Below the pieces are notes generated by a model. That model ran no database searches and was not told the origin of the DNA. It worked only from the letters and a program-made list of their open reading frames with translations. Both the position numbers and the translations under genes were made by a program. This document shows positions 1-56,697 of a stretch of DNA of 64,000 nucleotides, one piece after another. Origin of the DNA: an uncultured Myxococcales bacterium (GTDB taxonomy: Bacteria; Myxococcota; Kuafuiibacteriia; Kuafuiibacteriales; Kuafuiibacteriaceae); assembly GCA_964463485.1 (NCBI GenBank), contig CAYXDO010000015.1, forward strand, positions 34,259 through 98,258, given 5' to 3'. The first letter of the stretch is position 1. Every line of letters begins with the position of its first letter.

Positions 1-2720
1 ACAAGCGCCCCCACGTCGCGACGATCGACTTCGATTCACCGAGCTACGAACGAGAGCTGGATACGCTCGCGACGCAGCTCGGAGCGCGACCGTACGTCAT
101 CGCCGCGCTCACGAAATACGACTGGCTCTACTTCGGGACCGATATCGGCTTTCGGCTCTCGCAGAAGGGATCGCGCTATTTAGGCGCTTCTTTGGGGCTC
201 GACGATCACGCGGCTCGGCGCGCGCTTTCGCAGGCCGACGCGAGGTCGACGGCGGAGCTTTTGGCTCCGATTCGATCGGCCCTCGCACGTTTGGGAGCGC
301 TCGGCTCGATCTTGGGTTTGGCGCTCTTGCTTCGGCTGGTTTGTGCGCCGTTTGCGTGGTTCGAAGCGCTGTCCGCTCATGCGCGCAAGCGGATCTCCAA
401 AGACTCGCTCTACCTTGGCCTGGAGCGAGTCGCGCTGCGCTCGATCGGCGTGCGCCCCACGCTCGCCGCGCTCGGCCTGTTCGCGGCTTGGCTTCCGCTC
501 TTGGTCGCGTGGCCGCTGCTCCTGTACGAGGGCGGACCGCTGGCCGGCAGCGCACTCGAGAGACCCAGCGTGGCCGGTCTCGCGATGCTGTTGCTCGTCG
601 TGCTCGCGCGAGTGTCGATGCGAGCGGGCGTTCCTCGAGGCTCTAGGATGGTCTACCTGAGCGCGGCCTTCGCGGGTGCGGCTTGGCTCGCTTCCGAGCT
701 CGCGCTCGGGCTGTCGCTCTTCGCGACGTGTTTCATCGCGCTCGGTCTGCCGCTCGAATGGTGGGCGACGCGACGGGTGTCGACGCGCCTCCGAGTCGCC
801 GAGGAGGTTCAGCCCGGAGCGACCATTCGCGTCGGTGATGTCGAGCTCTCCTCGTTGCCCTCGTTCCGAGCGAGCGCATCCAAAGCGGGTCGACTCGCGG
901 AGCTCGCGCGTTTGTCGACGACGCTCTTCCGCGTGCCCAAAGGCGTGGTGCTCGAGGGACCGCTCACAGATCCGGCGAAGAGCCGAGTCGCCGCGACCTT
1001 GGCAACAGAGCATTTGATCGCGGACTCGTATGCGGTTCGTTCGAGCGCTCCGAAGGAAGATGCTTCGGGCTCGACGCAAGCCGGCAAGTTCCTCACGAAG
1101 CTGAAGGTGGCTCCCGAGTCACTCGCAGACGCGATCGAAGCGGTGGCGCGGAGCTACGGGGACAATGAAGATCGCGCGATCGTGATCGTGCAGGAGATGG
1201 CGCCGGCCAGATCCGCTGGGGTCGCGTTTTCGCGGTCGTTCGCGAGCCCCGCGATCACCCACGTGGAGCTCGGGCTCGGGCTCGCGGACGCTCGGCTCTC
1301 GGGAGAGGAGCAGCCGAGCTCGGTCGGTGTGTCTTGGTTGAGCGGTCGTTCGTTCCCATCCAAGCTCGACGGCGCCGCCGAAGACGCGGCCCTCGTCTCG
1401 CGCGTGCTCGAGGTCCGATTCAGAGCACCGCAAGACGTCGAGTGGGTGCACGACGGTCGCACTCTGTTCGTCGTTCAGTCACGCGACGCGGCGATTTCGA
1501 GCTCGATCGTTCAGGCCGAGCAGGAGCGTATCGTGCGCTCGCTCGATCGGTTCGATGGGAAGCTCGTTCCCGGAGACGCACTTCCGCCGAACGCTTCGAT
1601 TCTGTCGATGTCGATCGTCGCACGAACTTACTCCGACGGCCTTCCGCGAGCGATTCGAGCGCTCGGCGGCCGACCTGGCCGAGTAGCAGCGCTGGTCGCT
1701 TTTGGACGGCTGTACACCGCGACGGGTCGAATCTCGATACGGACGCCAAAGGACGCGACGGCGCGGATCGCACGTCTGAGATCGTCGATCGACGAGCTGG
1801 AAGCGAAGGCCACGCTCAGGACGCACGATGCGAAGAGCATTCACGCGGCGCTTCTCGAGGTTTCGGCTGACACGAGCGTGTCGTTCGAGACCGCGCTGCT
1901 CGCGGCCGCGCTCGATCACGGCGGATCGTCGCGGGTTCGCACGATCACCACCGAGCTCTTCGAGGGCCTTGGCGCCGTAGGGCGTGGCGAGCAGCTCGCT
2001 GAGTTTGTCGCGAAGTTCGGTCATCGCGCGGAGCACGACTACGAGCTCGCGCTGCCCAGCTTCGCGGAGGATCGCTCCGCGCTCGAGCTCTTCGCGCGGC
2101 GACACGCCCGCTGGCCTGCTTCGCGAACGGGCGACAGATCGGGGACGGCTGTGGAGATCATTCGTCTGAAGGAACGCGCCAAGGACGTCGTCGTTCGGCG
2201 CCTGAGATCCGTGCGACCGGCGCTCCTTGCGCTCGGCGCTCGGCTCGGCATCGATCCGTTCGCGCTCGAGCTCGACGATCTGTTGCTCGACGACGCTGAG
2301 CTCGCGGAGGCCGCGCGGCGGCGGGCCGCGGAGCGGGAGATTCTGCTTCGTCAGGAGCTTCCGGAGCGACCGACGAGAGAGGACTTCGAGCGATTGGGAG
2401 CCGACATAGGCGACGGTGCCGCGGGCGTCCGGTTCATCTCGGGCGGTGCGTTCGAAGGTCGGGTCGTCTTCGGACCCCCTGAGGGCGACCCGAGCGGGCT
2501 CGTGTGTGTGGTCCCGAGCCTGAGCCCCGAGCTGACCGCATCGCTGCCTGGCCTCGCCGGCGTCTTGGCGAAGGCGGGCGGAGCTTTGTCGCACCCAGCC
2601 ATCGTCGCGCGGGAGCTCGGTGTACCCATCGCGATTTCGGCAGACGAGGGGATGAGTTTGAGAGAAGGGGACTTCGTGGAGGTGAGGGCTTCGGGAGTCA
2701 CGGTTCGCCGCGGCGTTTGA
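1..2720 (+). CDS. 5'-partial CDS. Membrane-anchored PEP-utilising-enzyme family protein: N-terminal TM helices, a PPDK_N/PEP-synthase-like ATP-grasp nucleotide-binding domain and a C-terminal swivel-His mobile domain.
   Basis: The frame of ORF 192..2720 stays open with high GC3 back to position 3 of the window, so the gene starts upstream. At least four hydrophobic segments (LGLALLLRLVCAPFAWF, LGLFAAWLPLLVAWPLLLY, and others). Motif VRSSAPKEDASGSTQAGKFLTKLKV matches the PPDK_N signature VRSSAxxED..SFAGQ. C-terminal GGALSHPAIVARELGVPIAI matches the PEP-utilisers phospho-His site. Confidence 0.6.
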   Translation, partial: KRPHVATIDFDSPSYERELDTLATQLGARPYVIAALTKYDWLYFGTDIGFRLSQKGSRYLGASLGLDDHAARRALSQADARSTAELLAPIRSALARLGALGSILGLALLLRLVCAPFAWFEALSAHARKRISKDSLYLGLERVALRSIGVRPTLAALGLFAAWLPLLVAWPLLLYEGGPLAGSALERPSVAGLAMLLLVVLARVSMRAGVPRGSRMVYLSAAFAGAAWLASELALGLSLFATCFIALGLPLEWWATRRVSTRLRVAEEVQPGATIRVGDVELSSLPSFRASASKAGRLAELARLSTTLFRVPKGVVLEGPLTDPAKSRVAATLATEHLIADSYAVRSSAPKEDASGSTQAGKFLTKLKVAPESLADAIEAVARSYGDNEDRAIVIVQEMAPARSAGVAFSRSFASPAITHVELGLGLADARLSGEEQPSSVGVSWLSGRSFPSKLDGAAEDAALVSRVLEVRFRAPQDVEWVHDGRTLFVVQSRDAAISSSIVQAEQERIVRSLDRFDGKLVPGDALPPNASILSMSIVARTYSDGLPRAIRALGGRPGRVAALVAFGRLYTATGRISIRTPKDATARIARLRSSIDELEAKATLRTHDAKSIHAALLEVSADTSVSFETALLAAALDHGGSSRVRTITTELFEGLGAVGRGEQLAEFVAKFGHRAEHDYELALPSFAEDRSALELFARRHARWPASRTGDRSGTAVEIIRLKERAKDVVVRRLRSVRPALLALGARLGIDPFALELDDLLLDDAELAEAARRRAAEREILLRQELPERPTREDFERLGADIGDGAAGVRFISGGAFEGRVVFGPPEGDPSGLVCVVPSLSPELTASLPGLAGVLAKAGGALSHPAIVARELGVPIAISADEGMSLREGDFVEVRASGVTVRRGV

Positions 2721-2771
2721 CGAAGTCAGCGAGTCTTCGAACGAGTTGCTGCGAACCAGGGTGCGACAAGC

Positions 2772-3899
2772 TCATTCTCGGCCTGCGAGCGAGCTCAGGA
2801 CCAAATCGTACCGCGCCGAGACATGATCGAGCCCGTACGTACTCACAGCCCGCTGGCGCGCGGCGAGGCCCAGGCGACGACGTAGTCCTTCATCCTTCGA
2901 GAGCGCCCGGAGGACGGTTCCGAGCTCGGAGACTTCTGGGGTGACGACGAGGCCCGTCGAGTCATGATCGATCAAGCTGGCGATCCCCGGTGCGTCAGCT
3001 CCCACGCAGGCACAGCCACAAGCCATCGCCTCAATCAGGGCCTTGGAGTTCCCTTCTCGCTTGGACAAAATGACAAAGACTCGGGCCGCGTTGAGCAGCT
3101 CGGGGAGCGACTGGTTCTCGACGCGAGCGATGAACTCGACCGGCACGCCGCGCGCACGTGCGAGGGCGCGGAGGCGCGTCTCGGCCTCGCCGGTGCCTAC
3201 GATGGCCGCGCAGAGCCCGGTCCCGGCCAAGGCTTCGATCAACAAATCGTGACGTTTGTGATCGTCGAGTCTACCCACCGACACCACGTCATGGCGCGGC
3301 AAGGCGGGGCGCGGCCGAAACAAGTCGGTGTCGACGAAATTGGGCACGACGTGGATGATACGCGGTCCGAGACCGTAGCGGACTCTCGCGAACTCAGCCA
3401 ACTCCGCGGTGGGCAGAATACACTCGGCAGCGGCCCGATGGACGAACCGCTCTTCGAGGATGATTCGCTTCGCTCGCAGTGAGTCATCATTGCGAAGGGT
3501 GAACGCGTCGCCGAGCAGGTTGCCCGAGCGGGCCACGAGCGGAGCTCCCCAGATCTTGGCGGCGATCACGGCTGGGAGGCCGCCGTGGGCTTGGTTCGTC
3601 ATGATCACATGGGGGCGTTCGGAGGGTCTCGGAGGCTTGAGCCACGGGATGAGGAGGCCGTAGGCCGTAGACCAAGCTTTTGGGAGCACGAACGGCCATT
3701 GGGGTACGATGAGTCCCTCGAAACCGCCCGCGGGGACATAGGGAAGGCGGTCGAAGGTGTAGATCGCCACGCGCCAACCTCGCTCGCCGAGCGCGCGGTA
3801 AAGGGCGAGCTCACGGGAGAGGGAACCCACGCGTTCCCAGGTGCGCAGGCCGCGGCCGGTGGTCAGAAACACGGCGAGCCGCTTTTCCCTCGGGCGCAC
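2772..3899 (-). CDS. Glycosyltransferase family 1 (GT4-like, GT-B fold)
   Basis: 375-aa ORF. C-terminal EGNSKALIEAMACGCACVGADAPGIASLIDHDSTGLVV is a typical GT1 E-x7-E region. Converges on the 3' end of the upstream + gene. Confidence 0.8.
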   Translation of the reverse strand: MRPREKRLAVFLTTGRGLRTWERVGSLSRELALYRALGERGWRVAIYTFDRLPYVPAGGFEGLIVPQWPFVLPKAWSTAYGLLIPWLKPPRPSERPHVIMTNQAHGGLPAVIAAKIWGAPLVARSGNLLGDAFTLRNDDSLRAKRIILEERFVHRAAAECILPTAELAEFARVRYGLGPRIIHVVPNFVDTDLFRPRPALPRHDVVSVGRLDDHKRHDLLIEALAGTGLCAAIVGTGEAETRLRALARARGVPVEFIARVENQSLPELLNAARVFVILSKREGNSKALIEAMACGCACVGADAPGIASLIDHDSTGLVVTPEVSELGTVLRALSKDEGLRRRLGLAARQRAVSTYGLDHVSARYDLVLSSLAGRE

Positions 3900-3915
3900 T
3901 TTCGACTCTTCTCTG

Positions 3916-4767
3916 CTACCGACGTCTCGCGGAGAAATAGCCCCACACCGCGCCGGTCGCGGTGGCGGCGGCGAGGGCGAGGTGACCGATCGCGAGGCTG
4001 GGCTCCATGGAGGCCGAGTTGGTCTGTGACGCGAGCCCGACTCTATCGATCCCTCTCGCGGTCAGCGAGCGGAGCGACGTACCGTGCAGCGCGACCGAGC
4101 GGCCGCAGCCGTATCCAACACCAATGGCCTTCTCCAAAAGCTGCCTTGGAGAACGGCGAGACGGGTGCTCCACCACGACGTCGTCCCGGTAGGCGATCGC
4201 AAAACCGAAGCTCGCGGCCCGCCGACCGATTTCTGCGTCTTCTTCGTACTTGCTGAGTCGCTCGTCGAAGCCACCCGCACTCGTGAGGACTTCCCTCCGC
4301 ACGAACAAATTTGCCGTTGCTCCGAATCCTTCGCGCACATATCTTTCTTGCCGAAGGAAACGCGAGCGGTCGAGGCGCTCGGTGTACGTGGGTGGGTCGC
4401 CGGTCGAAATGACGATCCGACCGGCAACGCGCGGAGAGTCAGCCACTGCTGCGACCCCTCGTTCCAGCCAGTCAGGGCGAGGCCGGCAATCAGCGTCCGT
4501 GAATGCGACAATTTGACCCGTCGAGCTCGTCCAGCCCGTGTTTCTAGCTGCGGCGACATTTCCGCCCCCAACTCTTCGAATGACTCGGAAAGGACGAGAT
4601 GCGCGATCGAAGAGCTCTTCGGGATGGTCTTCAGACCCATCGTCGACGACGATCACTTCGAAGTCGTCGCGCGGAAGCGTTTGGGTCTCGAGAGCTCCGA
4701 TCAGATCCGGGAGGAGTGCTCGACCATTTCTAACGGGGACGACGACGGAGATCCTCGCAGCCTTCAT
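3916..4767 (-). CDS. Glycosyltransferase family 2
   Basis: N-terminal ISVVVPVRNGRALLPDLIGALETQT...FEVIVVDDGSED is a GT2 DXD-type signature. 16 nt downstream gap to the GT1 gene on the same strand. Confidence 0.8.
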   Translation of the reverse strand: MKAARISVVVPVRNGRALLPDLIGALETQTLPRDDFEVIVVDDGSEDHPEELFDRASRPFRVIRRVGGGNVAAARNTGWTSSTGQIVAFTDADCRPRPDWLERGVAAVADSPRVAGRIVISTGDPPTYTERLDRSRFLRQERYVREGFGATANLFVRREVLTSAGGFDERLSKYEEDAEIGRRAASFGFAIAYRDDVVVEHPSRRSPRQLLEKAIGVGYGCGRSVALHGTSLRSLTARGIDRVGLASQTNSASMEPSLAIGHLALAAATATGAVWGYFSARRR

Positions 4768-4832
4768 GTCACCTACTCTCGAACGGTCCTACTCGAGGAG
4801 CCGTGGACGTCCAGTCCTAACAGAAGTCGCTG

Positions 4833-5963
4833 GTGTTGGGCGAGAGGGGCTCGCTAGGAGTCGCGAAGCCCAGGCCGGCGACCGTTCCTTCGCCGGGTCA
4901 GCCATGCTACTCTTTCGCGGTGCAGGTTCTCATCTACGGGGCCGGGTCGATAGGCAATCACCTCGCCTTCGCATGCAGAGAGAGGGACTGGGAAGTCACC
5001 GTCGTCGATGTGGACAGTGCCGCCCTGGAGAGGATGCGGAGCGAAATCTATCCCAAGAGGTACGGCGCGTGGGACCCTGCGATCCGCCTGCAGCTCGGGG
5101 AGGAGGCCGCGGGGGCGGACTTGGTCATCGTCGGGACTCCGCCCGATTCCCACCTCGAATTGGCCGAACGCGCTTTGCGCCTGCGGCCTAGAATCGTGCT
5201 CATCGAGAAGCCGTTGTCGGTTCCGTTTTCCGACTTCAGCGTGGTCGAGCGGCTCGCGCGGGAAACGGGCACTCGCGTTCTGGTAGGTTACAATCATCTC
5301 CTTTGCCGGAATACGAGACACGTCGAGCAGTTGCTTGCCGAGGGTGCGATTGGAGCGCCTATCACGATTCGGGTGAGCTGGGTCGAGTCGTGGGTCGGAA
5401 TCCTGAGGGCCCACCCATGGCTCGCTGGCCCCGAGGCTTCCTACTTGGGAAACTGGGAGCGGGGAGGCGGCTCGCTCTGCGAGCACTCCCACGGGTTGAA
5501 CCTCTTTCAACATTTTGCGCGAACTCTTGGGTTTGGCGAAGTCGAGCTCGTGAGTGCGTCTTTCGACTTCGTCGAGCAGCCGGGTTCTTCGTACGATCGG
5601 ATCGCGCAGCTTCATCTCAGGACCGAAGGCGGGTTGACCGGGCTCGTCACTCAGGACGTGGTTCAAGATCCGCCGGAGAAGAGACTTACGATCGTCGGTG
5701 CGGACGGTGTGCTGAGTTGGTACGGCGCGCGTCCCGACTCGACCGACGGGGTCGTGCTCGAGTCTCGAGGCCGCCGGGAGGAGCGGACTTTCGTCCGATC
5801 GCGCCCGGACGACTTTCGCGGGGAGATCTCACATGTGGCTGACGTCCTAGCGGACCGTGAGCTCGAATCGCCGCTCTCGTTGGAGCACGGTATTCGGACC
5901 ATGAAGGTCATCGACGGAGCGTTCCGAAGCGCGCGCGAGCGCCGCTCGGAGGGGCTTCGATGA
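4833..5963 (+). CDS. Gfo/Idh/MocA-family NAD(P)-dependent oxidoreductase. Start is GTG at 4833 or possibly GTG at 4920.
   Basis: Rossmann motif VLIYGAGSIGNHLA, then VGTPPDSHLELAERAL...IVLIEKPLS typical of Gfo/Idh/MocA. The stop overlaps the next gene's start (ATGA at 5960-5963). Confidence 0.65.
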   Translation: MLGERGSLGVAKPRPATVPSPGQPCYSFAVQVLIYGAGSIGNHLAFACRERDWEVTVVDVDSAALERMRSEIYPKRYGAWDPAIRLQLGEEAAGADLVIVGTPPDSHLELAERALRLRPRIVLIEKPLSVPFSDFSVVERLARETGTRVLVGYNHLLCRNTRHVEQLLAEGAIGAPITIRVSWVESWVGILRAHPWLAGPEASYLGNWERGGGSLCEHSHGLNLFQHFARTLGFGEVELVSASFDFVEQPGSSYDRIAQLHLRTEGGLTGLVTQDVVQDPPEKRLTIVGADGVLSWYGARPDSTDGVVLESRGRREERTFVRSRPDDFRGEISHVADVLADRELESPLSLEHGIRTMKVIDGAFRSARERRSEGLR

Positions 5964-7492
5964 CACGCTTCGCTTTCGACCCGCTCTTCGTTTTCGACTT
6001 GGCGAACAACCATCAAGGAAGCCTGGACCACGGGCTGAGGATCGTGTCCGCCATTGGCGAGGTGGTGCGAGGCGAAGGGGTTCGGGCAGCGCTCAAGGTT
6101 CAACTCCGCCACCTCGAGAGCTTCATTCACCCGGCAGCTCGGGGCTCGAAGGAGAACCGCCACGTCGAGCGGTTTTTGAGCACGGCGCTCTCTGGCGAGG
6201 ATTTCGGAAGACTCATCGCTGCGGTCAGGACTGCCGGTCTGATTCCGATGGCGACTCCGTTCGACGAGAAGTCGGTGGACTCGTTGGAAGAGCTCGGTGT
6301 CGAGGTCGTCAAGATCGGAAGTTGCTCGGCGACGGACTGGCCGTTGATTCGCCGGGTCTGCGCCTCAGGCCGGCCGGTCATCGCCTCGACTGGCGGCATG
6401 TCGCTGATCGACATTGACCGGCTCGTGGCGACGTTCACAACGCACGACGTGGAGTTCGCGCTCATGCACTGTGTTTCGATTTATCCGACTCCTGACGACG
6501 CGTTGAGGTTGAATCAGATCGACGTCCTTCGGGCTCGCTATCCTTGGATCACGGTGGGCTTTTCGACGCACGAGACGCCGACGAATCTCACCGCCGTTCA
6601 GCTTGCGTATGCGAAAGGTGCCCGGATTTTCGAGCGGCACGTCGGCCTGCCCGCCGCGGGCATCGTGCTCAACGCCTACTCGTCGACGCCCGAACAAGTC
6701 CGCGACTGGATTCGCGCGCACGAGCACGCGCGAGCGATGTGTGGAGGTACGAGGCGAGCGCCCTCACCCCTCGGCGAGCTGGAGTCGCTTCGCTCCTTGA
6801 TGCGAGGTGTGTTCGCGAGCAGACCCATCGCTCGCGGCCAAACGATCGCGCGAGACGACGTGTTCTTCGCGATGCCCCTCACGGCTGGACAGCTGAGTTG
6901 TTCTCAGTGGACCGAGGGACTGACCGCCGATGGCGATTATGAACAGCTTGCGCCGCTGTCGTTGAAGCTCGCGGAGCGCGAGAAGACGCGAGAACAACTC
7001 GTCTCCGAGATTCTGCTGCAGGTGAAGGGAGCGCTGAGTAGCGCGCGCATTGCCGTCAATCGCGACGCGAGCTTCGAGATCTCGCACCACTATGGGCTCC
7101 AACGTTTTCGAGAGTTTGGAGCAGTGATCGTCACTTGCGTGAACCGGCAGTATTGCAAGAAGCTGCTCGTGCTGCTGCCTCGGCAGAAGCATCCCTATCA
7201 CATGCATCGAACCAAGGAGGAGACGTTCCAGCTCCTCGCAGGAGATCTCGAGCTCGAGCGCGACGGGACACCCATCACCCTTCGACCAGGTGACACGGCG
7301 CTCGTGGGTCCCGGCGTCTGGCACAAGTTTCACACCCTTGGGGGCGCGGTGATCGAGGAGATCTCCACGACGGACTCACCCAACGACTCGGTGTACGAAG
7401 ACTGGCGAATCAACTCGCTCGCGCCGGCCGAACGCAAGACGTCCGTGCGCGGTATCGAAACGAATCTCGAACAGCCCGAGCTTTCCGAGTAG
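5960..7492 (+). CDS. N-acylneuraminate (nonulosonic acid) synthase family protein: NeuB-like TIM barrel, SAF domain and an extra C-terminal cupin domain
   Basis: N-terminal VFDLANNHQGSLDHGLRIVSAIG resembles the NeuB/PseI/SpsE IAEIGxNHNG motif. A mid-region SAF-like segment (ARGQTIARDDVFFAMP). The last ~150 aa (HMHRTKEETFQLLAGDLELERDGTPITLRPGDTALVGPGVWHKFHT) is cupin_2-like. Confidence 0.7.
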   Translation: MTRFAFDPLFVFDLANNHQGSLDHGLRIVSAIGEVVRGEGVRAALKVQLRHLESFIHPAARGSKENRHVERFLSTALSGEDFGRLIAAVRTAGLIPMATPFDEKSVDSLEELGVEVVKIGSCSATDWPLIRRVCASGRPVIASTGGMSLIDIDRLVATFTTHDVEFALMHCVSIYPTPDDALRLNQIDVLRARYPWITVGFSTHETPTNLTAVQLAYAKGARIFERHVGLPAAGIVLNAYSSTPEQVRDWIRAHEHARAMCGGTRRAPSPLGELESLRSLMRGVFASRPIARGQTIARDDVFFAMPLTAGQLSCSQWTEGLTADGDYEQLAPLSLKLAEREKTREQLVSEILLQVKGALSSARIAVNRDASFEISHHYGLQRFREFGAVIVTCVNRQYCKKLLVLLPRQKHPYHMHRTKEETFQLLAGDLELERDGTPITLRPGDTALVGPGVWHKFHTLGGAVIEEISTTDSPNDSVYEDWRINSLAPAERKTSVRGIETNLEQPELSE

Positions 7493-7495
7493 ATC

Positions 7496-8206
7496 GTGTT
7501 CTCTAGCAAGCGAACGTTGGTCGTAGTCCCGGCGAGGGGTGGGAGCCAAGGGATCCCGCTCAAGAACCTCAAGATCGTCGGCGGGCGGTCACTTTTGGCA
7601 CGAACCGGCGAGGTCGTTTCGCAGCTCGATTTCGTCGATCGCGCGGTCTGCTCGACGGATCATCCGCGCATCGCCGAGGAAGCTCGCGCGGTCGGTCTCG
7701 AGACTCCGTTCGTGAGGCCACAGACTCTCTCGGGGCCGCTCGTCTCAGACGCCGAAGTGCTCGAGCACGCGCTACGCGAGGTCGAGCGGCAGGAGGGCGC
7801 CGAGTACGATCTGGTGGTCATGCTGCAGCCGACGTCGCCCTTGCGTCGCGCCGAAGACGTGACGGGCACGGTGAAGATGCTGGTCGAAGGCGGCTACGAC
7901 GCGGTGTGGACGGTGAGTCTGACCGATCCAAAGCACCACCCCCTCAAGCAGCTCATCATCGAAGGTGACGCCCTCGATTATTATGATGCGGAGGGAGCCC
8001 AGATCATCGCACGCCAACAACTCACTCCTGTATACCATCGGAATGGAGTTGCCTACGCCATCTCGCGTGGCTGCTTGCTCGAACGGCGAAGCATCAAGGG
8101 GTCGAGAACCGGCGCGATGATCGTCGAAGCTCCCGCGATCAGCATCGACACCGAGAGTGACTGCGACTTTGCGGAGTGGATCCTCTCTCGGAGGAGCTCC
8201 CGTTGA
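7496..8206 (+). CDS. Acylneuraminate cytidylyltransferase family (CMP-nonulosonic acid synthetase, NeuA/KdsB-like)
   Basis: N-terminal LVVVPARGGSQGIPLKNLKIVGGRSLL matches the NeuA PARGGSKGIPxKN signature. 236 aa, typical for a stand-alone NeuA domain. Begins 4 nt after the NeuB-like stop. Confidence 0.8.
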   Translation: MFSSKRTLVVVPARGGSQGIPLKNLKIVGGRSLLARTGEVVSQLDFVDRAVCSTDHPRIAEEARAVGLETPFVRPQTLSGPLVSDAEVLEHALREVERQEGAEYDLVVMLQPTSPLRRAEDVTGTVKMLVEGGYDAVWTVSLTDPKHHPLKQLIIEGDALDYYDAEGAQIIARQQLTPVYHRNGVAYAISRGCLLERRSIKGSRTGAMIVEAPAISIDTESDCDFAEWILSRRSSR

Positions 8207-8214
8207 TTCCGGAG

Positions 8215-9543
8215 ATGGCGCGCCGAAAGGCCGAGAGCGCCAAGCGCCGGGTGGGTGAGCGCGCGCTCGGCGTGGCTGCCAGGGCTCGTCGGGCCAGGGA
8301 GACCGCGTTGCTCCTGAGGGCCTTGATTCGACCCATCACACCTCGGCGCGGGTCGAACGCGATCAGGATCCTCGTGCTGCCGGCAAATGGGTTTCTGGAG
8401 GACATGCTGGAGGTCGCGGCGAGCGACCCTCGGATCGAGCTCCATGCGCTCTCGCGGACCGCGGTGAAGGCCGTTGCTTCAGCCTTTCTCTCTCCTCGGG
8501 TCAATGACTTCACGTATGGGTCTCCGGACGCGGCCGATCGGCAGGGTATGCGGGCGTATCGCGAGTTTCTCGTCGAGGTGCTCCTTCGAATGCCTTCGGA
8601 GTTGAGGTTCCATGCAGTGGCGAGCGGCAATTTTGCCTACTATGCGGAGCAGGAGCTCGCCGCAGCGTTCGAGGCCTGTGGAGTTCCGTTCGTCGTGCTT
8701 TTGAAGGAGTGTCTCAACACCCCCGGTCTCGAGCGGTTTTGGGAGAGAGTCTATCGTGAGTGGCGCCGACCGTTTGGCGGCCGAAAAATCCTCGTGTACA
8801 ACGAAGGGACTCGGGGGTTGCTCTTGCGCTCGGGTGTTGCGCCGAGCGAGCGCATCTCGGTGGTAGGGATGCCGCGGCTCGATCGCCAACATCGGGACCG
8901 GTCGGGAGGGATGTCCGCCGCACAACTCTTGTTCCTCGTCTTTGGGCCTCGAACAGGGTTGCCGGACATTCCTTCGAGCCGGCGGGACCTCCCCTCAGAG
9001 CTCAGGTACACGGGATGGCGAGACCTCGCGAGGGAGTGCCATCGCGCGGTGCTCGACGTCGCGGTCGAAGCGCCCGAGTCGAGGATCATCGTCAAGGCCA
9101 AGGAAGTCTTGGCCCACCAAAGGGAGGTGGAGGAACACTACCAGGGTCGTCGCGAGCTTCCGCCGAACGTCGAGGTGATCTCGGTGGGCGAGGTGTTCGA
9201 GCCCTTGAGGCGCAGCAGGATCGTGGTGGGTTTCAAATCGACGGCTTTGCTGGAGGCGATGGCGGCCGGCAAGGCGGTCATGGTGCCTCGCTTCGCGGAA
9301 GCGAGCGACCCGGCCTTGGCGGACTTCCTGTTGGATTTGGGAGAGTATGTCGAGTATCCGGAGTCAGCGAGCGCGTTCCGAGCTTCGATGCTACAGCACT
9401 TACGCGGGCAGCGGACGGCGCCGGGCGCTGCCGAATGGGCCGCGCTGGCAAGGCCGGTGTTGGAGCGATGGCTCGGCAACGCCGACGGTCGCTCGGCGGA
9501 GCGAGCTCGGGCCGAGCTCTTGGAGCTGAGTCGTGTCGCATAG
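8215..9543 (+). CDS. Hypothetical protein of about 442 aa. Candidate GT-B-like sugar transferase or modification enzyme acting on the CMP-nonulosonate product.
   Basis: ATG at 8215 is preceded by GGAG. ORF-track start 8176 overlaps the NeuA-like gene. No motif I can name. The position, wedged with overlaps between NeuA-like and GT2, suggests the same operon. Confidence 0.5.
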   Translation: MARRKAESAKRRVGERALGVAARARRARETALLLRALIRPITPRRGSNAIRILVLPANGFLEDMLEVAASDPRIELHALSRTAVKAVASAFLSPRVNDFTYGSPDAADRQGMRAYREFLVEVLLRMPSELRFHAVASGNFAYYAEQELAAAFEACGVPFVVLLKECLNTPGLERFWERVYREWRRPFGGRKILVYNEGTRGLLLRSGVAPSERISVVGMPRLDRQHRDRSGGMSAAQLLFLVFGPRTGLPDIPSSRRDLPSELRYTGWRDLARECHRAVLDVAVEAPESRIIVKAKEVLAHQREVEEHYQGRRELPPNVEVISVGEVFEPLRRSRIVVGFKSTALLEAMAAGKAVMVPRFAEASDPALADFLLDLGEYVEYPESASAFRASMLQHLRGQRTAPGAAEWAALARPVLERWLGNADGRSAERARAELLELSRVA

Positions 9544-10405
9544 TGTCTCGGTCGTGGTTCCGACCGCGAACAGACGACCGCACGAAATTCTCCGAGCCGT
9601 CGACAGCGTGTTGTCGCAGTCTTCGGGCCGAGCGCTCTCGGGCGTCGAGCTCATCGTCGCGAACAACTCGTCCGGGCGGCTCAACCGCGCCATCGAGGTG
9701 CTCGCAGAGTCCGGCGCGCTGCAGGTCGTGGACGCCTCACGGGTGACCGGTGTCAGTCACGCTCGAAACGCGGGCGCTCGTCTGGCGCGACACGAAGTCC
9801 TCGCATTCTTGGATGACGATGACTGGTGGTCCCCGTCTTTCCTCTCAGACTTGCTGCTCGAGCTCGACGCACACTCCGCCGATTTGTGCTCCAGCGGGTT
9901 TTGGGTTTGGACGGAGAGAGGTAAGAAGCCCGGTCCGATGCTCGAATCACCCACGACGGCGGCGCGGTTCTTGAGTGAGAATCCGGGCATCACGGGCTCG
10001 AACTTCATCATTCGTCGGAGCGCCTTCGAGGCGCTCGGCGGCTTCGACGAGGCCCTGTTCGCGTCCAACGATGGGGACTTCATGATTCGCTTCCTGGAGT
10101 CCGGAGAGTACGCATGGCGAGTCGTGATGGCGAGGCTGGTGAACGTAGACCGTACGCCACACGACCAGGTCTCCGTGCCCACGCCAAGACGAGTCCAGAG
10201 CATGCGGAGATTTCAGTCCATCCACGGCGCCAAGATGGGCCCGCGGGTCCAGAGAGACTTCGAGTACCGCCTGGCCGTGTGCGAGGCCGCGAGCAACCGA
10301 TCCTATTGGGATTTGGTCGGGCTGATTCCCCGGCATCCTAGGTGGTCACGCCAGACACTCGGGTGGATCAAGAAGCTCGCGCTGGGCCGGCACTCGACGT
10401 TCTGA
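9533..10405 (+). CDS. Glycosyltransferase family 2
   Basis: MSHSVSVVVPTANRRPHEILRAVDSVLSQS...FLDDDDWW is a GT2 fold signature. Start overlaps the previous stop by 11 nt. Confidence 0.75.
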   Translation: MSHSVSVVVPTANRRPHEILRAVDSVLSQSSGRALSGVELIVANNSSGRLNRAIEVLAESGALQVVDASRVTGVSHARNAGARLARHEVLAFLDDDDWWSPSFLSDLLLELDAHSADLCSSGFWVWTERGKKPGPMLESPTTAARFLSENPGITGSNFIIRRSAFEALGGFDEALFASNDGDFMIRFLESGEYAWRVVMARLVNVDRTPHDQVSVPTPRRVQSMRRFQSIHGAKMGPRVQRDFEYRLAVCEAASNRSYWDLVGLIPRHPRWSRQTLGWIKKLALGRHSTF

Positions 10406-11456
10406 GCGGATCGCGGCTCAGACGTCTGGCGACCGCGTCAGCCATCGCCCGCTCCACGTTCACCGGACCCCCGATTTCGATCCAGCGGTCGAATTCTCGC
10501 CGATAATGAAAGCGAGCCTTCAGCGCCGTCGTGAGCCCGAAATGCACACCTTGATACTCCAACAACAATGGACGTTCTGGGCTTGGCCGACGATCGACGA
10601 TGATGTCGAGCGACGCGAAGGGCAGGTCGAGCTCCTTGGCGGCCTCGAAAGCGAAGTCGAGGATCGTTGCGGGGACCGGCAAGAACTCGAGCCTGCCGCC
10701 CCCGCTCGCCCGAAAGTCGCGCCGACGATTGCGGCGGTAGAGGCCGCACGCGACGTCGTCCCACAGAAGTACTTTCCAATCCCCTTCGCTGACGATGAGC
10801 TCCTGAGCGACGAGTCGCCCAACGGTATGCCGGCGCAGCGCTCGGTCGAGCGCCCGCCTGACGAGACCGCGACCGGGAAACGATGCCGGATCGGTGAGGA
10901 TTCGTCGCGCGGCCCGTCGCGCCTCGCTGGGCGTGCGCGCGAGGCTCACGCCGGAGGCCCCCCACCCAGTCGCGGTCTTCAACACGATGGGAAAGTCCGC
11001 ATCAGCCAAATAGCGATCGAGGTGACCGGAAAAGCCGAAGACTCGAGTCCGCGGGACGGGAATCTTGGAGCGCCCGAGACGGACGGCCTGGTAGACCTTG
11101 TCTTCGTGGGCGAGCATGTGCTCGAACGAAGGCAAGAGGACGACGCCTTGTCTCTCCAGGGCTGAGAGTATCGACCTGATGAAAGCCGAGTACTCTGGAC
11201 GCTGGCTCGTCGCGTACACGGCGGCGGAGGGCCGAGCTGTGGCAAGCTCGAACAACCGCGGATCATGGAGCCCTACCGAAACCGCTTCGAGCCCGTGCCC
11301 GTTCAAGCTCCCCTCGAGCTCCCGCAAGTCTAGCCCCTCGTTCGCGCCGATGCGTTGTGGCACCTGGCCTTTGAAGTCCGTGAGGATCAAGACCCGAGAG
11401 ATGGGTACGGATAGGCGAGGAGAGTCCACCGCCCGACGAATAACTCGACGCTTCAC
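10368..11456 (-). CDS. ATP-grasp domain protein (RimK/D-Ala-D-Ala-ligase-like). Start uncertain, probably GTG near 11456.
   Basis: FPIVLKTATGWGASGVSLARTPSEARRAARRIL is the ATP-grasp glycine-rich ATP-binding region, followed by WKVLLWDDV...YRRN. The full ORF to 11660 would overlap the divergent GT2 start at 11475, so a shorter N-terminus is likely. Confidence 0.55.
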   Translation of the reverse strand: MKRRVIRRAVDSPRLSVPISRVLILTDFKGQVPQRIGANEGLDLRELEGSLNGHGLEAVSVGLHDPRLFELATARPSAAVYATSQRPEYSAFIRSILSALERQGVVLLPSFEHMLAHEDKVYQAVRLGRSKIPVPRTRVFGFSGHLDRYLADADFPIVLKTATGWGASGVSLARTPSEARRAARRILTDPASFPGRGLVRRALDRALRRHTVGRLVAQELIVSEGDWKVLLWDDVACGLYRRNRRRDFRASGGGRLEFLPVPATILDFAFEAAKELDLPFASLDIIVDRRPSPERPLLLEYQGVHFGLTTALKARFHYRREFDRWIEIGGPVNVERAMADAVARRLSRDPLRTSSAGPARAS

Positions 11457-11474
11457 CGATGAGAAGGGGGCCGC

Positions 11475-12407
11475 GTGAATCCGACGCTCTCGATTGTCGT
11501 TCCCGCGCGAAACGTCGCCCGGTGGATCGACGAAGCCGTTCGAAGCGCGCTCGGCTCGAGGCTCGCCTGCGAAGTGCTCGTGGTGGACGATGGCTCGAGT
11601 GATGATACTTGCTGCAGAGTCGAGCAGATTCGCGATTCGCGGGTGAGGGTCGTTCGGCAACGTCCGTTGGGACTCTCATCGGCTCGAAATCGAGGGATCA
11701 CCGAGGCCACCGGGCAATTCATTAGCTTCTTGGACGGCGATGACTGCGTGCTCGCGGCAGAGCTCGATCGAGCGGTGAGTCGCCTGGCGCGTACGGAAGC
11801 CTGGGTGATTTATGGAGAGACCATGATCATGGACTCTCTTGGCAGGGTCTTCGGAGCACGTCCGCCTCCCCTGTTTGCGCCCCGACCGGAGGGTGACGTG
11901 CTCCGGGCGCTCCTCGCTCGCAATTTCATCGCCAGCACGGGAGCCACCGCCATCCGGAGGATCGCGTTCGAGTCGGTGGGTCGGTATGCGCCCGAGCTCG
12001 TCCGGGCGCAGGACTGGGAGATGTGGTGCCGACTCGCAGCCAAGGGTAGGTTCCTTTACGCGGGTCCTCGGCCCATACTCCTCAGGAGAGTCAGAGTCGG
12101 AAGCGTGAGTGCGACGATCGGACTCTCCGCTGCCGAGATGCTTCGTACGATCGAGGTCGTGTTTTCGAATGCGGACGTGGTGGGCGCGATTCCGCGCGAG
12201 CGACTTCGCACGCTGGAGCGCATGCAGATAGCGTTTGCCCACGTAGTCGCGGGAACGGAGTGCTTGAGGGCGCGGCGGTTCGATGAAGCCCGCCGCGCCC
12301 TCGCCCGCGCCCTCGCGATGGATCCGACGCGCCCAGAGGCCGGCGTGCTGCTTCTCGCGGCGCTCGCGCGCCGACTGCCCTCCTCGCTGGAACGCAGACT
12401 CAAGTAG
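11475..12407 (+). CDS. Glycosyltransferase family 2 with C-terminal TPR-like helical tail
   Basis: MNPTLSIVVPARNVARWIDEAVRSAL...VLVVDDGSSDDT...FLDGDD are GT2 motifs. C-terminal Ala/Arg-rich helical region. Confidence 0.75.
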   Translation: MNPTLSIVVPARNVARWIDEAVRSALGSRLACEVLVVDDGSSDDTCCRVEQIRDSRVRVVRQRPLGLSSARNRGITEATGQFISFLDGDDCVLAAELDRAVSRLARTEAWVIYGETMIMDSLGRVFGARPPPLFAPRPEGDVLRALLARNFIASTGATAIRRIAFESVGRYAPELVRAQDWEMWCRLAAKGRFLYAGPRPILLRRVRVGSVSATIGLSAAEMLRTIEVVFSNADVVGAIPRERLRTLERMQIAFAHVVAGTECLRARRFDEARRALARALAMDPTRPEAGVLLLAALARRLPSSLERRLK

Positions 12408-12464
12408 TCGCAGCGGCTTCTCCTTGCACCGCAGCTGCCTCTCGGGTGATCGTCCTCGCTGCTG

Positions 12465-13457
12465 GTGCTCATCTCCATCGTCATACCGATGCTTGACGAA
12501 GCGGGGAGCCTGCCGAGCCTCCACGCGGAGCTCGTCAAAGTCATCGAATCGAGTGGTCTCGAGGCGGAGGTCATCTTCGTCGACGACGGAAGCACGGACG
12601 CGACGTGGCGAGAGCTCGAAGCCATGACCCGACAGGATTCCAGAGTCGTGGCCCTTCGCCTGCGGCGCCGATTCGGCAAGGCCGCTGCGCTCTCGGCGGG
12701 CTTTGCGTTGTCGCGAGGCGAGCTCATCGTGACCTTGGATGGAGATGGCCAAGACGACCCGATGGAGGTTCCTCGGTGCTTGCGCGCGATCGATGAGGGC
12801 CTCGACGTCGTGGTCGGGTGGAAGCGCGATCGAAGGGACCCATTTACCAGGGTCCTCGCCAGCCGAATATTCAACCTCACGGAGAGCCTGCTCAGCGGGT
12901 TGCGGCTTCACGATCATAACTCGGGGCTGAAGGCGATGCGTCGCGCAGTGGTGTCGGAGGTGCGGTTGCACGGGGAGCTCCATCGCTTCATTCCCGCGCT
13001 CGCTCATGCTCGCGGCTTCCGGGTGGGAGAGATTCCGGTGAATCACCGGCCGCGTAAGTTTGGAAAATCCAAGTACGGCTTGTCGCGGTACGTCTGGGGA
13101 CTCCTCGATCTATTGATGGTCCGCCTGCTCGTGGGTTATCGCAGCCGGCCCCAACACGTGTTGGGTCTCTTGGGCTTCGGCTCCTTCTTCGCTGGCGGGA
13201 CCGGGCTGAGTTACCTCGCGGCCACGTGGATCGCCCGTTTTTATCGAGCGGACGAATACCTTCCGCTCGCGTCACGGCCACTGACTTTGTATTCGGTGGC
13301 CGCCCTCGTCTTCGGCGCCCAGATGCTGTCCTTGGGATTTCTCGCGGGACTCCTGCCCGTCTACAGCTCCCGAGATGAGGATCATTACAGCATCAAGGGA
13401 GTCATCGACTCCCGCCGGCCCCTCGACGTGTCCGCGCAGGAGAAGAGAGGAACGTGA
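12465..13457 (+). CDS. Polyprenyl-phosphate glycosyltransferase (GT2, DPM1/ArnC/GtrB-like) with C-terminal TM helices
   Basis: MLISIVIPMLDEAGSL...VIFVDDGSTDATW...VTLDGDGQDDP is the DPM1/ArnC signature. Two C-terminal hydrophobic helices typical of bactoprenol-P sugar synthases. Confidence 0.8.
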   Translation: MLISIVIPMLDEAGSLPSLHAELVKVIESSGLEAEVIFVDDGSTDATWRELEAMTRQDSRVVALRLRRRFGKAAALSAGFALSRGELIVTLDGDGQDDPMEVPRCLRAIDEGLDVVVGWKRDRRDPFTRVLASRIFNLTESLLSGLRLHDHNSGLKAMRRAVVSEVRLHGELHRFIPALAHARGFRVGEIPVNHRPRKFGKSKYGLSRYVWGLLDLLMVRLLVGYRSRPQHVLGLLGFGSFFAGGTGLSYLAATWIARFYRADEYLPLASRPLTLYSVAALVFGAQMLSLGFLAGLLPVYSSRDEDHYSIKGVIDSRRPLDVSAQEKRGT

Positions 13458-15286
13458 ATTCGAGAGAGCCCGGAGTGACCAACTCAGCTCGCCCGGGACT
13501 TCTCGAGGCGATGGGCGCGACCTGGTCGATGCTAGCCGTCAAGGATCGGCGTCGCCTGCTCGGACTCGTGGGGCTGCTCGTGATCGGCGCTGGACTGGAG
13601 GCGCTCGGAGTTGGATCGATCTTGCCGATCGTCCTCATGATCACTCGAGGTGAGTCAGCGGCTGCCCCGGGCTTGTCGCCCAAGCTCTACGCGGTGCTCG
13701 AGCGACTCACTTCGGGAGTCGGTCCTCCTGCGGTGGCGCTGCTCGTAGTCGGCGTCTTCGTTGTCAAGAACGGCTTTCTCTCCCTGACCGCGTACCTGCA
13801 ATTTCGTTTCATCAATCGCTTGCAGGTAGAGGCGGGAGAGGAGTTGTTTCGCCTTTACATGAGTCTGCCGTACGTCGATCATCTGGGTTCGAACCCGGCG
13901 CATCTGCTGAGGGACATCGACTCGGACGTCAAGCTCGCCCATCAAAAGGTGCTGCGCGCGATGATTCAGCTCCTCACGGAGGCCTTCGTTCTCTCTGCCA
14001 TCACGCTCCTGCTCGCGCTGCTCGATCCAGCCGTCGCGATCGCGGCGTTTGGGGTTTGTGGGGCGATGGGTTGGGCGTTTCACAGACTGATTAGGCGAAA
14101 GAGCGCTGGCTTGGGGCTTGCGGAGCGTCGGGCTCGGGGTCGAATCAACGAGCTCGTCCTGCAAGGGTTGCACTCCCTTCGTGAGACGAAGGTTCTCGGA
14201 CGCGAGGGCTTCTTCATCGCCGGTTTCGCGGAGGAGGCTCGACTGTTTTCGCGCGCGCACCTTTTCAACCAAATGGCGACGACGACCCCGTACTACGTTC
14301 TCGAGACGGTCGTGGCGGCAAGTCTGCTCCTGGTCCTGTGGTTGGGTCTGGTTCGGGGGTATGAGTTGTCGACGCTGGCTCCGGTCTTGGCTGTGTTCGT
14401 GGTCGCCGCGCTCCGCCTCGCCCCTTCGCTCAATCGAACGCTCGGAGCGGTCGAGTCGATGAGGTTCCACGGCCCCTCCGTGCGGGCGCTGTTGGCGAAT
14501 CGCTCGCGGGCACGTGCGAGTATCCTCGTCGAGGTGACGATGGGCGAACGAATCGAGCTGACGAATTCCATCCAGCTCCGAGGAGTTTCGTTCTCCTATC
14601 CCGACTCGCGTCGCCGCGCGCTCACCGAAGTCGAGCTTACCATCCCTCACGGCACGATTTTCGGCCTCGTCGGCCCCACCGGTAGCGGTAAGACCACGAC
14701 GGCCGATCTCGTACTGGGGCTGCTGCGCCCTCAAAGTGGGGAAATCCTCGTCGACGGGAAAGACATCTTCCGCGGCCTCGAGAGTTGGCGGGATCAGGTC
14801 GCGTATGTACCGCAGACCGTCTATCTCACGGACGACACGATTCGTCGAAACGTCGCCTTCGCCCTGCCGCCCGAGCGAATCGACGAGGCCGCGGTACTCA
14901 GGGCGCTGGAAGGCGCGCGGCTCCTCGACTTCGTACGCTCGCTCCCCAAGGGGCTCGAAACCGTCGTGGGAGAAGCGGGAGCTAGGCTCTCGGCGGGGGA
15001 GCGTCAGCGGATTGGAATCGCCCGCGCGCTGTATCGACCGGGCCGACTCCTCGTCCTAGACGAGTCCACCTCGGCGCTCGATTTGGAAACCGAGCGGCAA
15101 ATCTGCGAGACGATTTCGAGCCTACGCAAGGATCGGACGATCCTGATCATCGCTCATCGGCCCAGCACGATCGAGTCATGCGACCAGGTCTGCCTGCTAT
15201 CAGAAGGTCGTATCATGCGGATCGGAGCTCCACGAGAGGTGATGGGCGAAGGTTTCGGAGTGGCCTCGGCTGGGGCGCTTTCATGA
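13454..15286 (+). CDS. ABC exporter, fused permease plus ATPase (MsbA/PglK-like). Candidate lipid-linked glycan flippase.
   Basis: Six-TM N-terminal half. Walker A GPTGSGKTT, ABC signature LSAGERQRIGIARAL, Walker B LLVLDESTSALD. GTG start overlaps the upstream stop (GTGA). Confidence 0.85.
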   Translation: MNSREPGVTNSARPGLLEAMGATWSMLAVKDRRRLLGLVGLLVIGAGLEALGVGSILPIVLMITRGESAAAPGLSPKLYAVLERLTSGVGPPAVALLVVGVFVVKNGFLSLTAYLQFRFINRLQVEAGEELFRLYMSLPYVDHLGSNPAHLLRDIDSDVKLAHQKVLRAMIQLLTEAFVLSAITLLLALLDPAVAIAAFGVCGAMGWAFHRLIRRKSAGLGLAERRARGRINELVLQGLHSLRETKVLGREGFFIAGFAEEARLFSRAHLFNQMATTTPYYVLETVVAASLLLVLWLGLVRGYELSTLAPVLAVFVVAALRLAPSLNRTLGAVESMRFHGPSVRALLANRSRARASILVEVTMGERIELTNSIQLRGVSFSYPDSRRRALTEVELTIPHGTIFGLVGPTGSGKTTTADLVLGLLRPQSGEILVDGKDIFRGLESWRDQVAYVPQTVYLTDDTIRRNVAFALPPERIDEAAVLRALEGARLLDFVRSLPKGLETVVGEAGARLSAGERQRIGIARALYRPGRLLVLDESTSALDLETERQICETISSLRKDRTILIIAHRPSTIESCDQVCLLSEGRIMRIGAPREVMGEGFGVASAGALS

Positions 15287-21504: not shown

Positions 21505-21595
21505 AGATGTCCTGCTCTGGTCCGGACACTCGAGCGACGGTACGCTACTCCAAAGCCCAGCCGCTAGCGACTCCAGGGAGTGAGGGAGTGAGATG

Positions 21596-21695
21596 AGCTC
21601 GGTTCAGCCAGCTCTGTTCGAAGCCAGCTCGGTTCGAAGCCAGCTCTGTTCGAAGCCAGCTCCGTTCGAAGCCAGATTCGTTCGAAGCCAAGTAG
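21596..21695. repeat. Tandem array of about 6 copies of a 16-bp unit gttcgaagccagctcN, in the intergenic region upstream of the 20107..21504 gene
   Basis: Read directly: ggttcagccagctct, gttcgaagccagctcg, gttcgaagccagctct, gttcgaagccagctcc, gttcgaagccagattc, gttcgaagccaagtag. Confidence 0.8.
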
Positions 21696-21716
21696 CCGCA
21701 GGCAAGATGCCTGCGG
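21696..21716 (-). terminator. Candidate stem-loop (ccgcaggc-aagat-gcctgcgg) 26 nt downstream of the outer-membrane-factor gene stop. No clear U-tract.
   Basis: Perfect 8-bp inverted repeat with a 5-nt loop in a convergent/intergenic position. Confidence 0.3.
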
Positions 21717-21741
21717 TCCCAGGGTAGAGGAAGGAACCTAG

Positions 21742-26273: not shown

Positions 26274-26285
26274 CTGGAGCTCCGT

Positions 26286-39299: not shown

Positions 39300-39322
39300 G
39301 CCGCCAGCTTACGCCCGTTCGC

Positions 39323-56686: not shown

Positions 56687-56697
56687 TTTCGGCTTGC

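Follow-up and report, generated by a model that had tools for sequence, protein, structure and literature searches.

The 64,000-nt stretch of DNA analysed here (hereafter the window; contig CAYXDO010000015.1 of assembly GCA_964463485.1, from an uncultured Myxococcales bacterium) begins within a gene that joins dikinase motifs to a membrane segment and lies next to an island of glycan biosynthesis genes, which raises the question of what such an enzyme phosphorylates and what its membrane part is for. The predicted structure shows the full protein to be a polytopic inner-membrane protein, in which a signal-peptide-like segment with a hairpin is followed by a periplasmic module, a core resembling the YidC/Oxa1 insertases and a dikinase of the rifampicin phosphotransferase (RPH) type. 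We give a probability of roughly 0.55 to the reading that this protein is a membrane-coupled His-relay phosphotransferase acting on a putative amphipathic envelope precursor.

Translation of the + strand revealed that frame 3 is open from base 3 through a stop codon at 2718-2720. A protein of 1,232 aa from public data (P0001) is 100% identical to the window protein, and positions 10950-23669 of locus L010 (assembly GCA_016208175.1, contig JACQYO010000084.1) are 100% identical to window positions 1-12720; L010 therefore provides the true upstream sequence. According to this identity and to the start region in L010, the gene starts 949-979 nt upstream of the window edge. The initial annotation had noted that the N-terminus is cut by the window edge, and the upstream extension gave the full gene, with the first 327 aa of the full-length protein lying outside the window. 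The protein encoded in L010 itself (P0082, 1,222 aa, MBI4818521.1), which shares a 90% cluster with P0001, is annotated as 'MAG: hypothetical protein HY791_19800 [Deltaproteobacteria bacterium]'. A TTG at nt 192 was also considered as the gene start and was ruled out by the frame open to the window edge, by the full-length protein and by the upstream DNA. Another member of the P0001 cluster, P0083 (1,566 aa, from a 25-kb Logan contig), is called about 330 aa longer, which could reflect another start call or an additional fusion. The features of the gene in the window are the following:

3..2720, + strand: C-terminal part of the focal gene, 905 codons plus stop of a gene of 1,222-1,232 aa.
3..293, + strand: end of the predicted periplasmic module, comprising its last alpha/beta subdomain and the long amphipathic helix before the membrane core, with conserved D336, K365, D367, G372 and D374 (P0001 numbering).
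294..791, + strand: predicted YidC/Oxa1-type five-helix membrane core with a shortened cytoplasmic C1 loop (P0001 aa 425-590).
333..335, + strand: codon of Arg438 (P0001 numbering), which falls in the motif LLLRLxxxP where YidC has its hydrophilic-groove arginine (family alignment).
792..821, + strand: basic linker of low confidence between membrane core and dikinase (pLDDT <50 at window aa 266-271; charge count).
822..1502, + strand: ATP-grasp nucleotide-binding domain (PPDK_N), containing VRSSAPKEDASGSTQAGKF (Pfam; Foldseek to the RPH ATP-binding domain 5hv6).
1503..2402, + strand: helical domain, at the position of the rifampin-binding domain of RPH and of the substrate-binding domain of PigC/HapC (AlphaFold2 secondary structure; Foldseek full-length RPH alignment).
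2415..2717, + strand: phospho-histidine swivel domain (PEP-utilizers) (Pfam; PDB sequence matches to the swivel domains of phosphoenolpyruvate (PEP) synthase (PEPS) and RPH).

The dikinase half carries both domains of the PEP-utilising superfamily together with the catalytic His. In the window protein, Pfam matched PPDK_N (PF01326; E 2.2e-12, 47.3 bits, cutoff 27) and PEP-utilizers (PF00391; E 1.1e-13, 51.1 bits, cutoff 23.1), and the corresponding motifs were located at nt 1035-1091 (VRSSAPKEDASGSTQAGKF) and nt 2577-2630 (GGALSHPAIVARELGVPI). The catalytic His is encoded at nt 2592-2594 (His864 of the window protein, His1191 of P0001) and is kept in 27/27 fused members of the family, while K621, R673, E679, D680, Q724, D805, E807, Q819 and R821 of the ATP-grasp domain are kept in 26-29 of the 27-29 members aligned per column. 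The dikinase is predicted to be active because these residues are retained in nearly all fused members; their conservation argues for an active enzyme. A GHR motif is conserved in the helical domain, and a precomputed match to PF27448 (Rph_4th) exists on P0002, a homolog with 46% identity. The AlphaFold2 model of the 905-aa window protein (pLDDT 89.4, pTM 0.82) was matched by Foldseek to RPH (5hv2, 5hv1, 5fbs) with E 1.6e-20 to 5e-18 over 840-886 columns, and to PPDK with E 1e-5 at best. The model thus has the three domains in the RPH-type order within a single fold, and the cytoplasmic part is, by this prediction, a complete RPH-type enzyme made of ATP-grasp, helical substrate-binding and swivel-His domains. 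No Pfam match to the PEP-utilizers_C TIM barrel was found in the window protein or in the full-length protein, which ends 9 aa past the swivel domain; the next gene is a convergent GT4 (a family of glycosyltransferases, GT). The initial annotation had recognised the PPDK_N-type ATP-grasp and swivel phospho-His motifs, the missing PEP/pyruvate barrel and the likeness to rifampicin phosphotransferase, and all three hold in the full-length sequence and the fold comparison.

A Kyte-Doolittle scan revealed a hydrophobic cluster in the first 260 residues of the window protein. At least four transmembrane (TM) helices had been proposed here ahead of the dikinase, and the predicted structure gives five. 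The AlphaFold2 model of P0001 residues 1-612, built on 40 sequences, reached a pLDDT of 85.3 and a pTM of 0.71, and shows a five-helix core with a hydrophilic groove, as in the YidC/Oxa1 fold. The groove arginine, Arg438, lies in LLLRLVCAP of P0001, and its column is Arg in 26 of the 39 aligned members. The family alignment further revealed the YidC-like motifs LLLRLxxxP(I/F)xxxEARSRxxR and FLW(I/V)xxLxxPD. Among 43 relatives scanned individually, 12 matched PF02096 (60KD_IMP, YidC) at E<=0.01 (best E 1.8e-16; 54 bits against a cutoff of 35 in P0004), and in the five relatives whose coordinates were checked (P0004, P0037, P0041, P0045 and P0049) these matches align with the TM cluster of the window protein. 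Concordant matches to TIGR03592 (yidC_oxa1_cterm) were also obtained among relatives, all under its cutoff. Lys plus Arg counts per loop were 5, 7, 4 and 4 in the predicted cytoplasmic loops and 0, 1 and 0 in the predicted periplasmic ones, and therefore put the rhodanese-like module, described below, on the periplasmic side and the dikinase on the cytoplasmic side. This topology, which is based on charge counts and on the analogy with YidC, would match that known for YidC.

The signal-peptide-like start of the full-length protein ends in a nearly invariant family motif, A|LPTPD, which is followed by a two-helix hairpin and, after the second helix, by a Y(Y/L/F)R(C/S)D motif. The middle module of about 320 aa is, according to the predicted structure, a tandem rhodanese-like domain with the alpha/beta fold of that family, predicted to be periplasmic. 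Its nearly invariant polar cluster consists of R107, D109, D336, K365, D367 and D374. The active-site loop after strand 303-308 reads P307-F-S-S-T-L-R313, a P-x5-R loop of Cdc25 length; the catalytic cysteine is absent from this loop in P0001, and in the family 32 members have Pro in this column and none has Cys, while R313 is kept in 34 members. It is a speculation that such a Cys-less loop binds a phosphate-bearing product. The Pfam Rhodanese family matched two of the 43 relatives. P0004 has a canonical rhodanese with a CHNGNR loop and carries two Pfam rhodanese domains and 60KD_IMP ahead of the dikinase; in both P0004 and P0074, Pfam-recognisable rhodanese domains precede a Pfam-recognisable YidC core.

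The coupling of the two halves was examined in the family as a whole. A profile of N-terminal halves searched against all of 1.84 billion representative proteins (E<=1e-3) retrieved 49 relatives, most of them of 1,250-1,430 aa and several of 600-650 aa; about half are fusions, and individual Pfam scans found PPDK_N together with PEP-utilizers in 27/43. P0001 has only two close homologs, P0002 (46% identity) and P0003 (31%), while P0004 is a more distant match with the same layout. In three independent loci (L005/L006, L009 and L014/15/16) a gene of its own (616-627 aa) encodes the N-terminal module, and its stop lies in a 4-nt overlap with the start of a second gene (695-719 aa) for PPDK_N and PEP-utilizers. 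The best matches of these split dikinases were C-terminal halves of fused members (28-34% identity across some 700 aa, 230-340 bits), and generic stand-alone dikinases in the same database were poorer matches. Because the membrane and dikinase halves are found both fused and as coupled overlapping genes, they are expected to act jointly, for which the gene arrangements provide strong evidence. The family is rare yet phylogenetically broad, its loci spanning a GC content of 30-71%. A search of genome contigs with the N-terminal profile retrieved no locus, a metagenome search with a 4-sequence clade gave two loci, one of them useful, and a word-indexed search with a 14-sequence N-module profile, whose candidate list was swamped by TM words, gave one fragment only. 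Proteins of this kind now go by the labels 'hypothetical protein', 'pyruvate, water dikinase' or 'phosphohistidine swiveling domain-containing protein'; no dedicated NCBIfam model exists for the architecture, and literature searches for YidC in combination with dikinase, RPH or PEP-utilising enzymes yielded no description of it. We therefore regard the YidC-fold core coupled to an RPH-type dikinase as a known enzyme type in a conserved coupling not previously described.

According to the favoured reading, the dikinase would convert ATP to AMP + Pi, and His1191 would relay the beta-phosphate between the ATP-grasp site and an acceptor bound by the helical domain. This acceptor would be a compound other than pyruvate; an amphipathic precursor of the envelope that is embedded in the membrane appears most likely, be it a lipid, an intermediate linked to a lipid or to polyprenyl, or a small peptide or protein of the membrane. 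The YidC-like groove would present the substrate or pass it through, and in this genome the product could feed the adjacent surface-glycan pathway. An amphipathic membrane acceptor is suggested because a YidC-type groove and a periplasmic module are obligate companions of the dikinase, because the groove Arg is conserved, because ribosome docking appears unlikely and because YidC-type grooves scramble lipids (PMC11047089). Ribosome docking is disfavoured because the shortened C1 hairpin measures only about 31 aa and the 640-aa enzyme takes up the C-terminus. A membrane-tethered kinase for a non-pyruvate substrate, namely a glycan or lipid-linked intermediate, had been proposed in the initial annotation; the membrane-coupled RPH-type fold without a barrel agrees with the first part of that proposal, but the link to glycans is not universal and the gene is convergent with its neighbour.

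The genomic context bears on the nature of this acceptor. The neighbouring genes form the following island:

2772..15286, both strands: glycan island with GT4 (-), GT2 (-), GFO/IDH/MocA, NeuB-cupin, CTP_transf_3, a 455-aa protein, GT2, ATP-grasp (-), GT2 and an ABC transporter (Pfam; order identical in L010).

The neighbourhood of GT1, GT2 and nonulosonate genes described earlier is thus real in Pfam terms, as GT4, GT2, NeuB-cupin, a CMP-sugar cytidylyltransferase and an ABC transporter; the island is given here as context, and its functional tie to the focal gene is a presumption. The tblastn and blastp comparison of flanking proteins across all loci revealed that only the closely related pair L010 and L001 shares flanking genes, and that no window gene other than the focal gene, glycan genes included, has a homolog in L001. 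Upstream of the gene, L010 carries a divergent gene for a 346-aa polytopic protein, a tetratricopeptide repeat (TPR) protein, a PEGA protein and a type IV minor-pilin set, and the P0002 locus has the same upstream block with different downstream genes. In the latter, Wzy_C, GT4, a methyltransferase and Wzx lie about 5 kb away. P0039 (23% identity) is encoded inside an exopolysaccharide (EPS) cluster with Wzx, Wzy_C, GT2, GT4, deacetylases and AsnB, and L014 has Acyl_transf_3, GT2 and a methyltransferase nearby. Downstream of the P0045 split pair come TadG/TadE pseudopilins and an ABC2 transporter; in L005 and L006, TadG/TadE stand directly downstream of the split pair. At the P0036 locus (JGI 3300078620) the family member overlaps an FA_hydroxylase gene within a cluster of nonribosomal peptide synthetase (NRPS), polyketide synthase (PKS), KAS III, enoyl-CoA hydratase, acyl carrier protein, fatty-acid desaturase, haem-oxygenase-like, phosphopantetheinyl transferase and AsnB genes; such a gene content points to a lipopeptide or a lipid as the product of that lineage. 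No recognisable envelope genes surround the fused gene of L012. Heavy glycan clusters were thus present at three of the seven informative loci and a few glycan genes at a fourth, the other three having none. The sample is small, and L010 and L001 represent related lineages and hence fewer independent observations; the counts suggest a linkage to glycan genes above chance expectation that is neither universal nor fully independent. The linkage across genomes anticipated by the initial annotation is recurrent in this sense, but Tad or NRPS/PKS genes take its place elsewhere. The theme common to the loci is cell-envelope or exported products.

Several points weigh against the favoured reading. 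P0001 falls under every Pfam and NCBIfam threshold for YidC (P0001 and P0002 have no match to PF02096, and P0003 matches only with E 0.09), and its assignment to YidC comes from the predicted fold and from homologous family members. The YidC-like core could merely be a scaffold, docking of the dikinase onto the groove is only presumed, and the acceptor is one that we infer only. In P0062 (1,130 aa), an N-terminal FHA domain (Pfam E 7e-11) is joined directly to the segment equivalent to P0001 residue 331 onward; there is no TM helix between this cytoplasm-type domain and the last periplasmic subdomain, which contradicts the topology unless the gene, which may be chimeric, was mis-called. Finally, the focal gene converges on the GT4 gene of the window and therefore shares no common transcript with it, and no neighbouring gene family is conserved family-wide.

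These points leave room for other substrates. An unlikely but serious alternative is that the dikinase phosphorylates a surface glycan or an undecaprenyl-linked intermediate of the adjacent GT4/GT2/NeuB island, the membrane part only positioning it. The island immediately downstream, the EPS cluster around P0039, the Wzy_C, GT4, methyltransferase and Wzx genes near P0002, and GT2 and Acyl_transf_3 in L014 all agree with it, but the convergent gene stands outside the GT4 operon, the glycan genes of the window are without homologs in L001, three informative loci are devoid of glycan genes, no carbohydrate-binding module was found in the Pfam scans, and the kinship of L010 and L001 lowers the number of independent observations. 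Pilin genes recur as well: a type IV minor-pilin operon adjoins the gene in L010 and L001, and TadG/TadE genes follow the split pair in L005 and L006. Together with the YidC fold and its groove Arg, this is in line with a specialised ATP-coupled insertase or modifier of small, e.g. pilin-like, membrane proteins, whose dikinase phosphorylates the client or gates the groove. We find this quite improbable, since the pilin genes of L010 and L001 lie on the other strand and are separated from the focal gene by three others (346-aa membrane protein, TPR, PEGA), L011, L012, L014 and the P0036 locus have no pilin genes, the short C1 hairpin and the C-terminal enzyme disfavour ribosome docking as judged from the YidC mechanism, and RPH-type helical domains bind small molecules (PMC4844700).

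Small-molecule binding would suit a different arrangement, in which the YidC-like core and the periplasmic module serve as anchor or sensor and the dikinase acts on a soluble cytoplasmic metabolite, in the manner of glutamine kinase or of PigC-type activation, with the periplasmic rhodanese-like module regulating it much as in a sensor kinase. All characterised RPH/PigC-type enzymes use small molecules (PMC4844700, PMC13534948), and the canonical rhodanese with its CHNGNR loop in some relatives (P0004) could sense sulfur or redox state; nevertheless, the whole YidC fold, the groove Arg and FLWxxxLxxPD are kept across lineages of 30-71% GC and in split genes, and these retained features exceed the needs of anchoring, which makes the arrangement very doubtful. 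Hardly any weight is left for an ordinary PEP synthase/PPDK or a rifampicin-resistance phosphotransferase. The fold does match RPH, and the NCBIfam best-match names include 'phosphoenolpyruvate synthase' and RIF_Ptrans_rph, but the names matched ('phosphoenolpyruvate synthase', PigC, RedH, RIF_Ptrans_rph) score 10-40x under their cutoffs: the PEP synthase and PPDK equivalogs TIGR01418, NF005057 and TIGR01828 gave 41.4, 42.2 and 13.6 bits against cutoffs of 739.75, 598 and 843, RIF_Ptrans_rph (NF041857) gave 37 against 999, and the PigC model 41 against 1300. Ordinary PEPS or PPDK is ruled out by these scores and by the missing TIM barrel; the domain content, to which the 600-aa membrane and periplasmic N-terminal half adds, refutes that identity as far as the sequence tells.

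An extension of the phosphotransferase reading would be a 'phosphorylate-and-translocate' machine, in which the dikinase phosphorylates a lipid-linked or amphipathic substrate where the YidC-fold groove opens to the cytoplasm, the positive groove flips the phosphorylated head group to the other side of the membrane and the Cys-less Cdc25-like module, which would bind phosphate in the periplasm, receives it; we hold this to be rather improbable. In the prevailing view, YidC/Oxa1 proteins are insertases that work independently of energy; a role as lipid scramblases has been added to this view more recently. If the extension were true, the protein would be the first of the YidC/Oxa1 fold with an obligate coupling to ATP-dependent chemistry, and envelope components would acquire phosphate by a new route. 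A YidC fold always paired with a phospho-histidine ATP enzyme would show that the fold was recruited for substrate-modifying membrane chemistry, and the family would give the RPH/PigC-type dikinases, whose known members have small-molecule substrates, a membrane-coupled branch. If the substrate is a polyprenyl-linked or lipid precursor, the family bears on the phosphate substituents of surface polymers. The current annotation labels mislead about metabolism, and the split-gene forms constitute a ready two-protein system for biochemistry.

Some further observations were made at the loci. The divergent 346-aa polytopic protein of L010 (8921-9961, -), about 40 nt upstream of the focal gene, has an ortholog at L001:8903-9943 and contains the His-containing motifs WHSSMQTFGFGRIYDKRAG, ESFHALQYF and EGLHYWYDGFIW; its identity between the two metagenome-assembled genomes is 73%, against 46% for the focal protein. 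It has no Pfam or NCBIfam match and was not seen beside more distant family members. The minor-pilin set (L010:1-8003, -) comprises GspH/FimT-like, PilV-like, PilW-like, 149-aa and approximately 1,340-aa proteins and the PEGA protein, and is conserved in L001. Upstream of the fused gene of L012, a divergent 348-aa polytopic protein (2498-3544, -) shows exosortase-like Cys/Arg/His motifs by eye (LDPGCLGVDG, NIFRILLF, FHAHLGW) with no Pfam match at E<=0.01, and the exosortase likeness is only a lead from these motifs. Directly 3' of the fused gene of L007 (6110-6580, +), a 156-aa protein with no precomputed Pfam match opens with a HAD-like DxNGT motif (LILDYNGTIAFDG) and may be a partner phosphatase.

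In the window, the NeuB-family nonulosonate synthase (5960-7492, +) has a fused C-terminal cupin and lies between a GFO/IDH/MocA oxidoreductase and a CMP-sugar cytidylyltransferase. A 430-aa protein amid glycosyltransferases (10368-11660, -) has a weak RimK-like ATP-grasp match (E 5e-4) and may be an amino-acid ligase decorating the glycan. Large ORFs occur in or beside the island at 8176-9543, 16221-17729, 17708-20110 and 20107-21504; the 455-, 502- and 800-aa products have no Pfam family, and a 465-aa protein with a weak GT87-like match is probably a polytopic GT-C, polymerase or flippase-type protein. Farther downstream are a complete RND efflux operon (21742-27970, -) with outer-membrane factor, AcrB-type pump (E 1e-261), HlyD-type adaptor and TetR regulator; a CotH-family kinase (584 aa), a calcineurin-like phosphoesterase (515 aa) and a PMT-type GT-C mannosyltransferase-like protein (668 aa) at 37545-43845 (-), adjoined by a 1,609-aa Big_2 surface protein (43881-48710, +); and a 1,402-aa STAND-like regulator (52612-56820, -) with AAA_16, MalT-type TPR, a sigma-54 activator domain and a Fis-type helix-turn-helix.

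Among known systems, the five-helix core was compared with the YidC/Oxa1 insertases (B. halodurans YidC2, 3wo7; YidC entries 5mg3 and 6y86), and any insertase role of the focal core is putative. The P1 periplasmic domain of E. coli YidC is a beta-sandwich, whereas the periplasmic domain of the focal protein is predicted to be rhodanese-like; the C1 hairpin is shortened, and the C-terminal ribosome-binding tail of YidC is replaced by the dikinase. With PEP synthase and PPDK the focal dikinase has the ATP-grasp module and the swivel-His module in common, and the same chemistry, from ATP to AMP via a phospho-His, is expected; it is without the TIM barrel and follows the RPH-like order, with the His domain last. 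Cj1418 of C. jejuni is soluble and, we assume, a member of the PEPS/PPDK-like superfamily. It is the ATP-dependent L-glutamine kinase of the capsule locus, where it supplies the phosphoramidate modification (PMC6429109, PMC11800397), and the position of its gene within a capsular polysaccharide cluster can be likened to the setting of the focal gene; of the rest of its pathway, the window has no homologs except a generic CMP-sugar cytidylyltransferase beside NeuB. Alpha-glucan water dikinase (GWD), which phosphorylates a glycan and not pyruvate (PMC13553574), has no membrane or YidC-like part. The analogy drawn in the initial annotation is with such a dikinase for a substrate other than pyruvate; no GWD-specific similarity was detected in the focal protein, and Pfam scans of its full length found no carbohydrate-binding module family at E<=1.

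A rhodanese-fold domain is also physically tied to a YidC-fold protein in E. coli, where the TM-anchored rhodanese protein YibN binds YidC (PMC11997395); YibN is a separate polypeptide with a cytosolic rhodanese domain, whereas the focal module stands in cis, is predicted to be periplasmic and lacks the cysteine. The closest likeness of the dikinase is to RPH (5hv1, 5fbs) and the prodiginine ligases PigC/HapC/RedH, with which it shares the three-domain order without a PEP/pyruvate barrel, the catalytic His and the ATP-grasp residues, at about 15% identity. The architecture of RPH and HapC/PigC consists of ATP-grasp, helical substrate-binding and swivel-His domains (PMC4844700, PMC13534948), and these enzymes are described with those three domains only, whereas a YidC-like core and a periplasmic module accompany the focal dikinase, either by fusion or through operon coupling.

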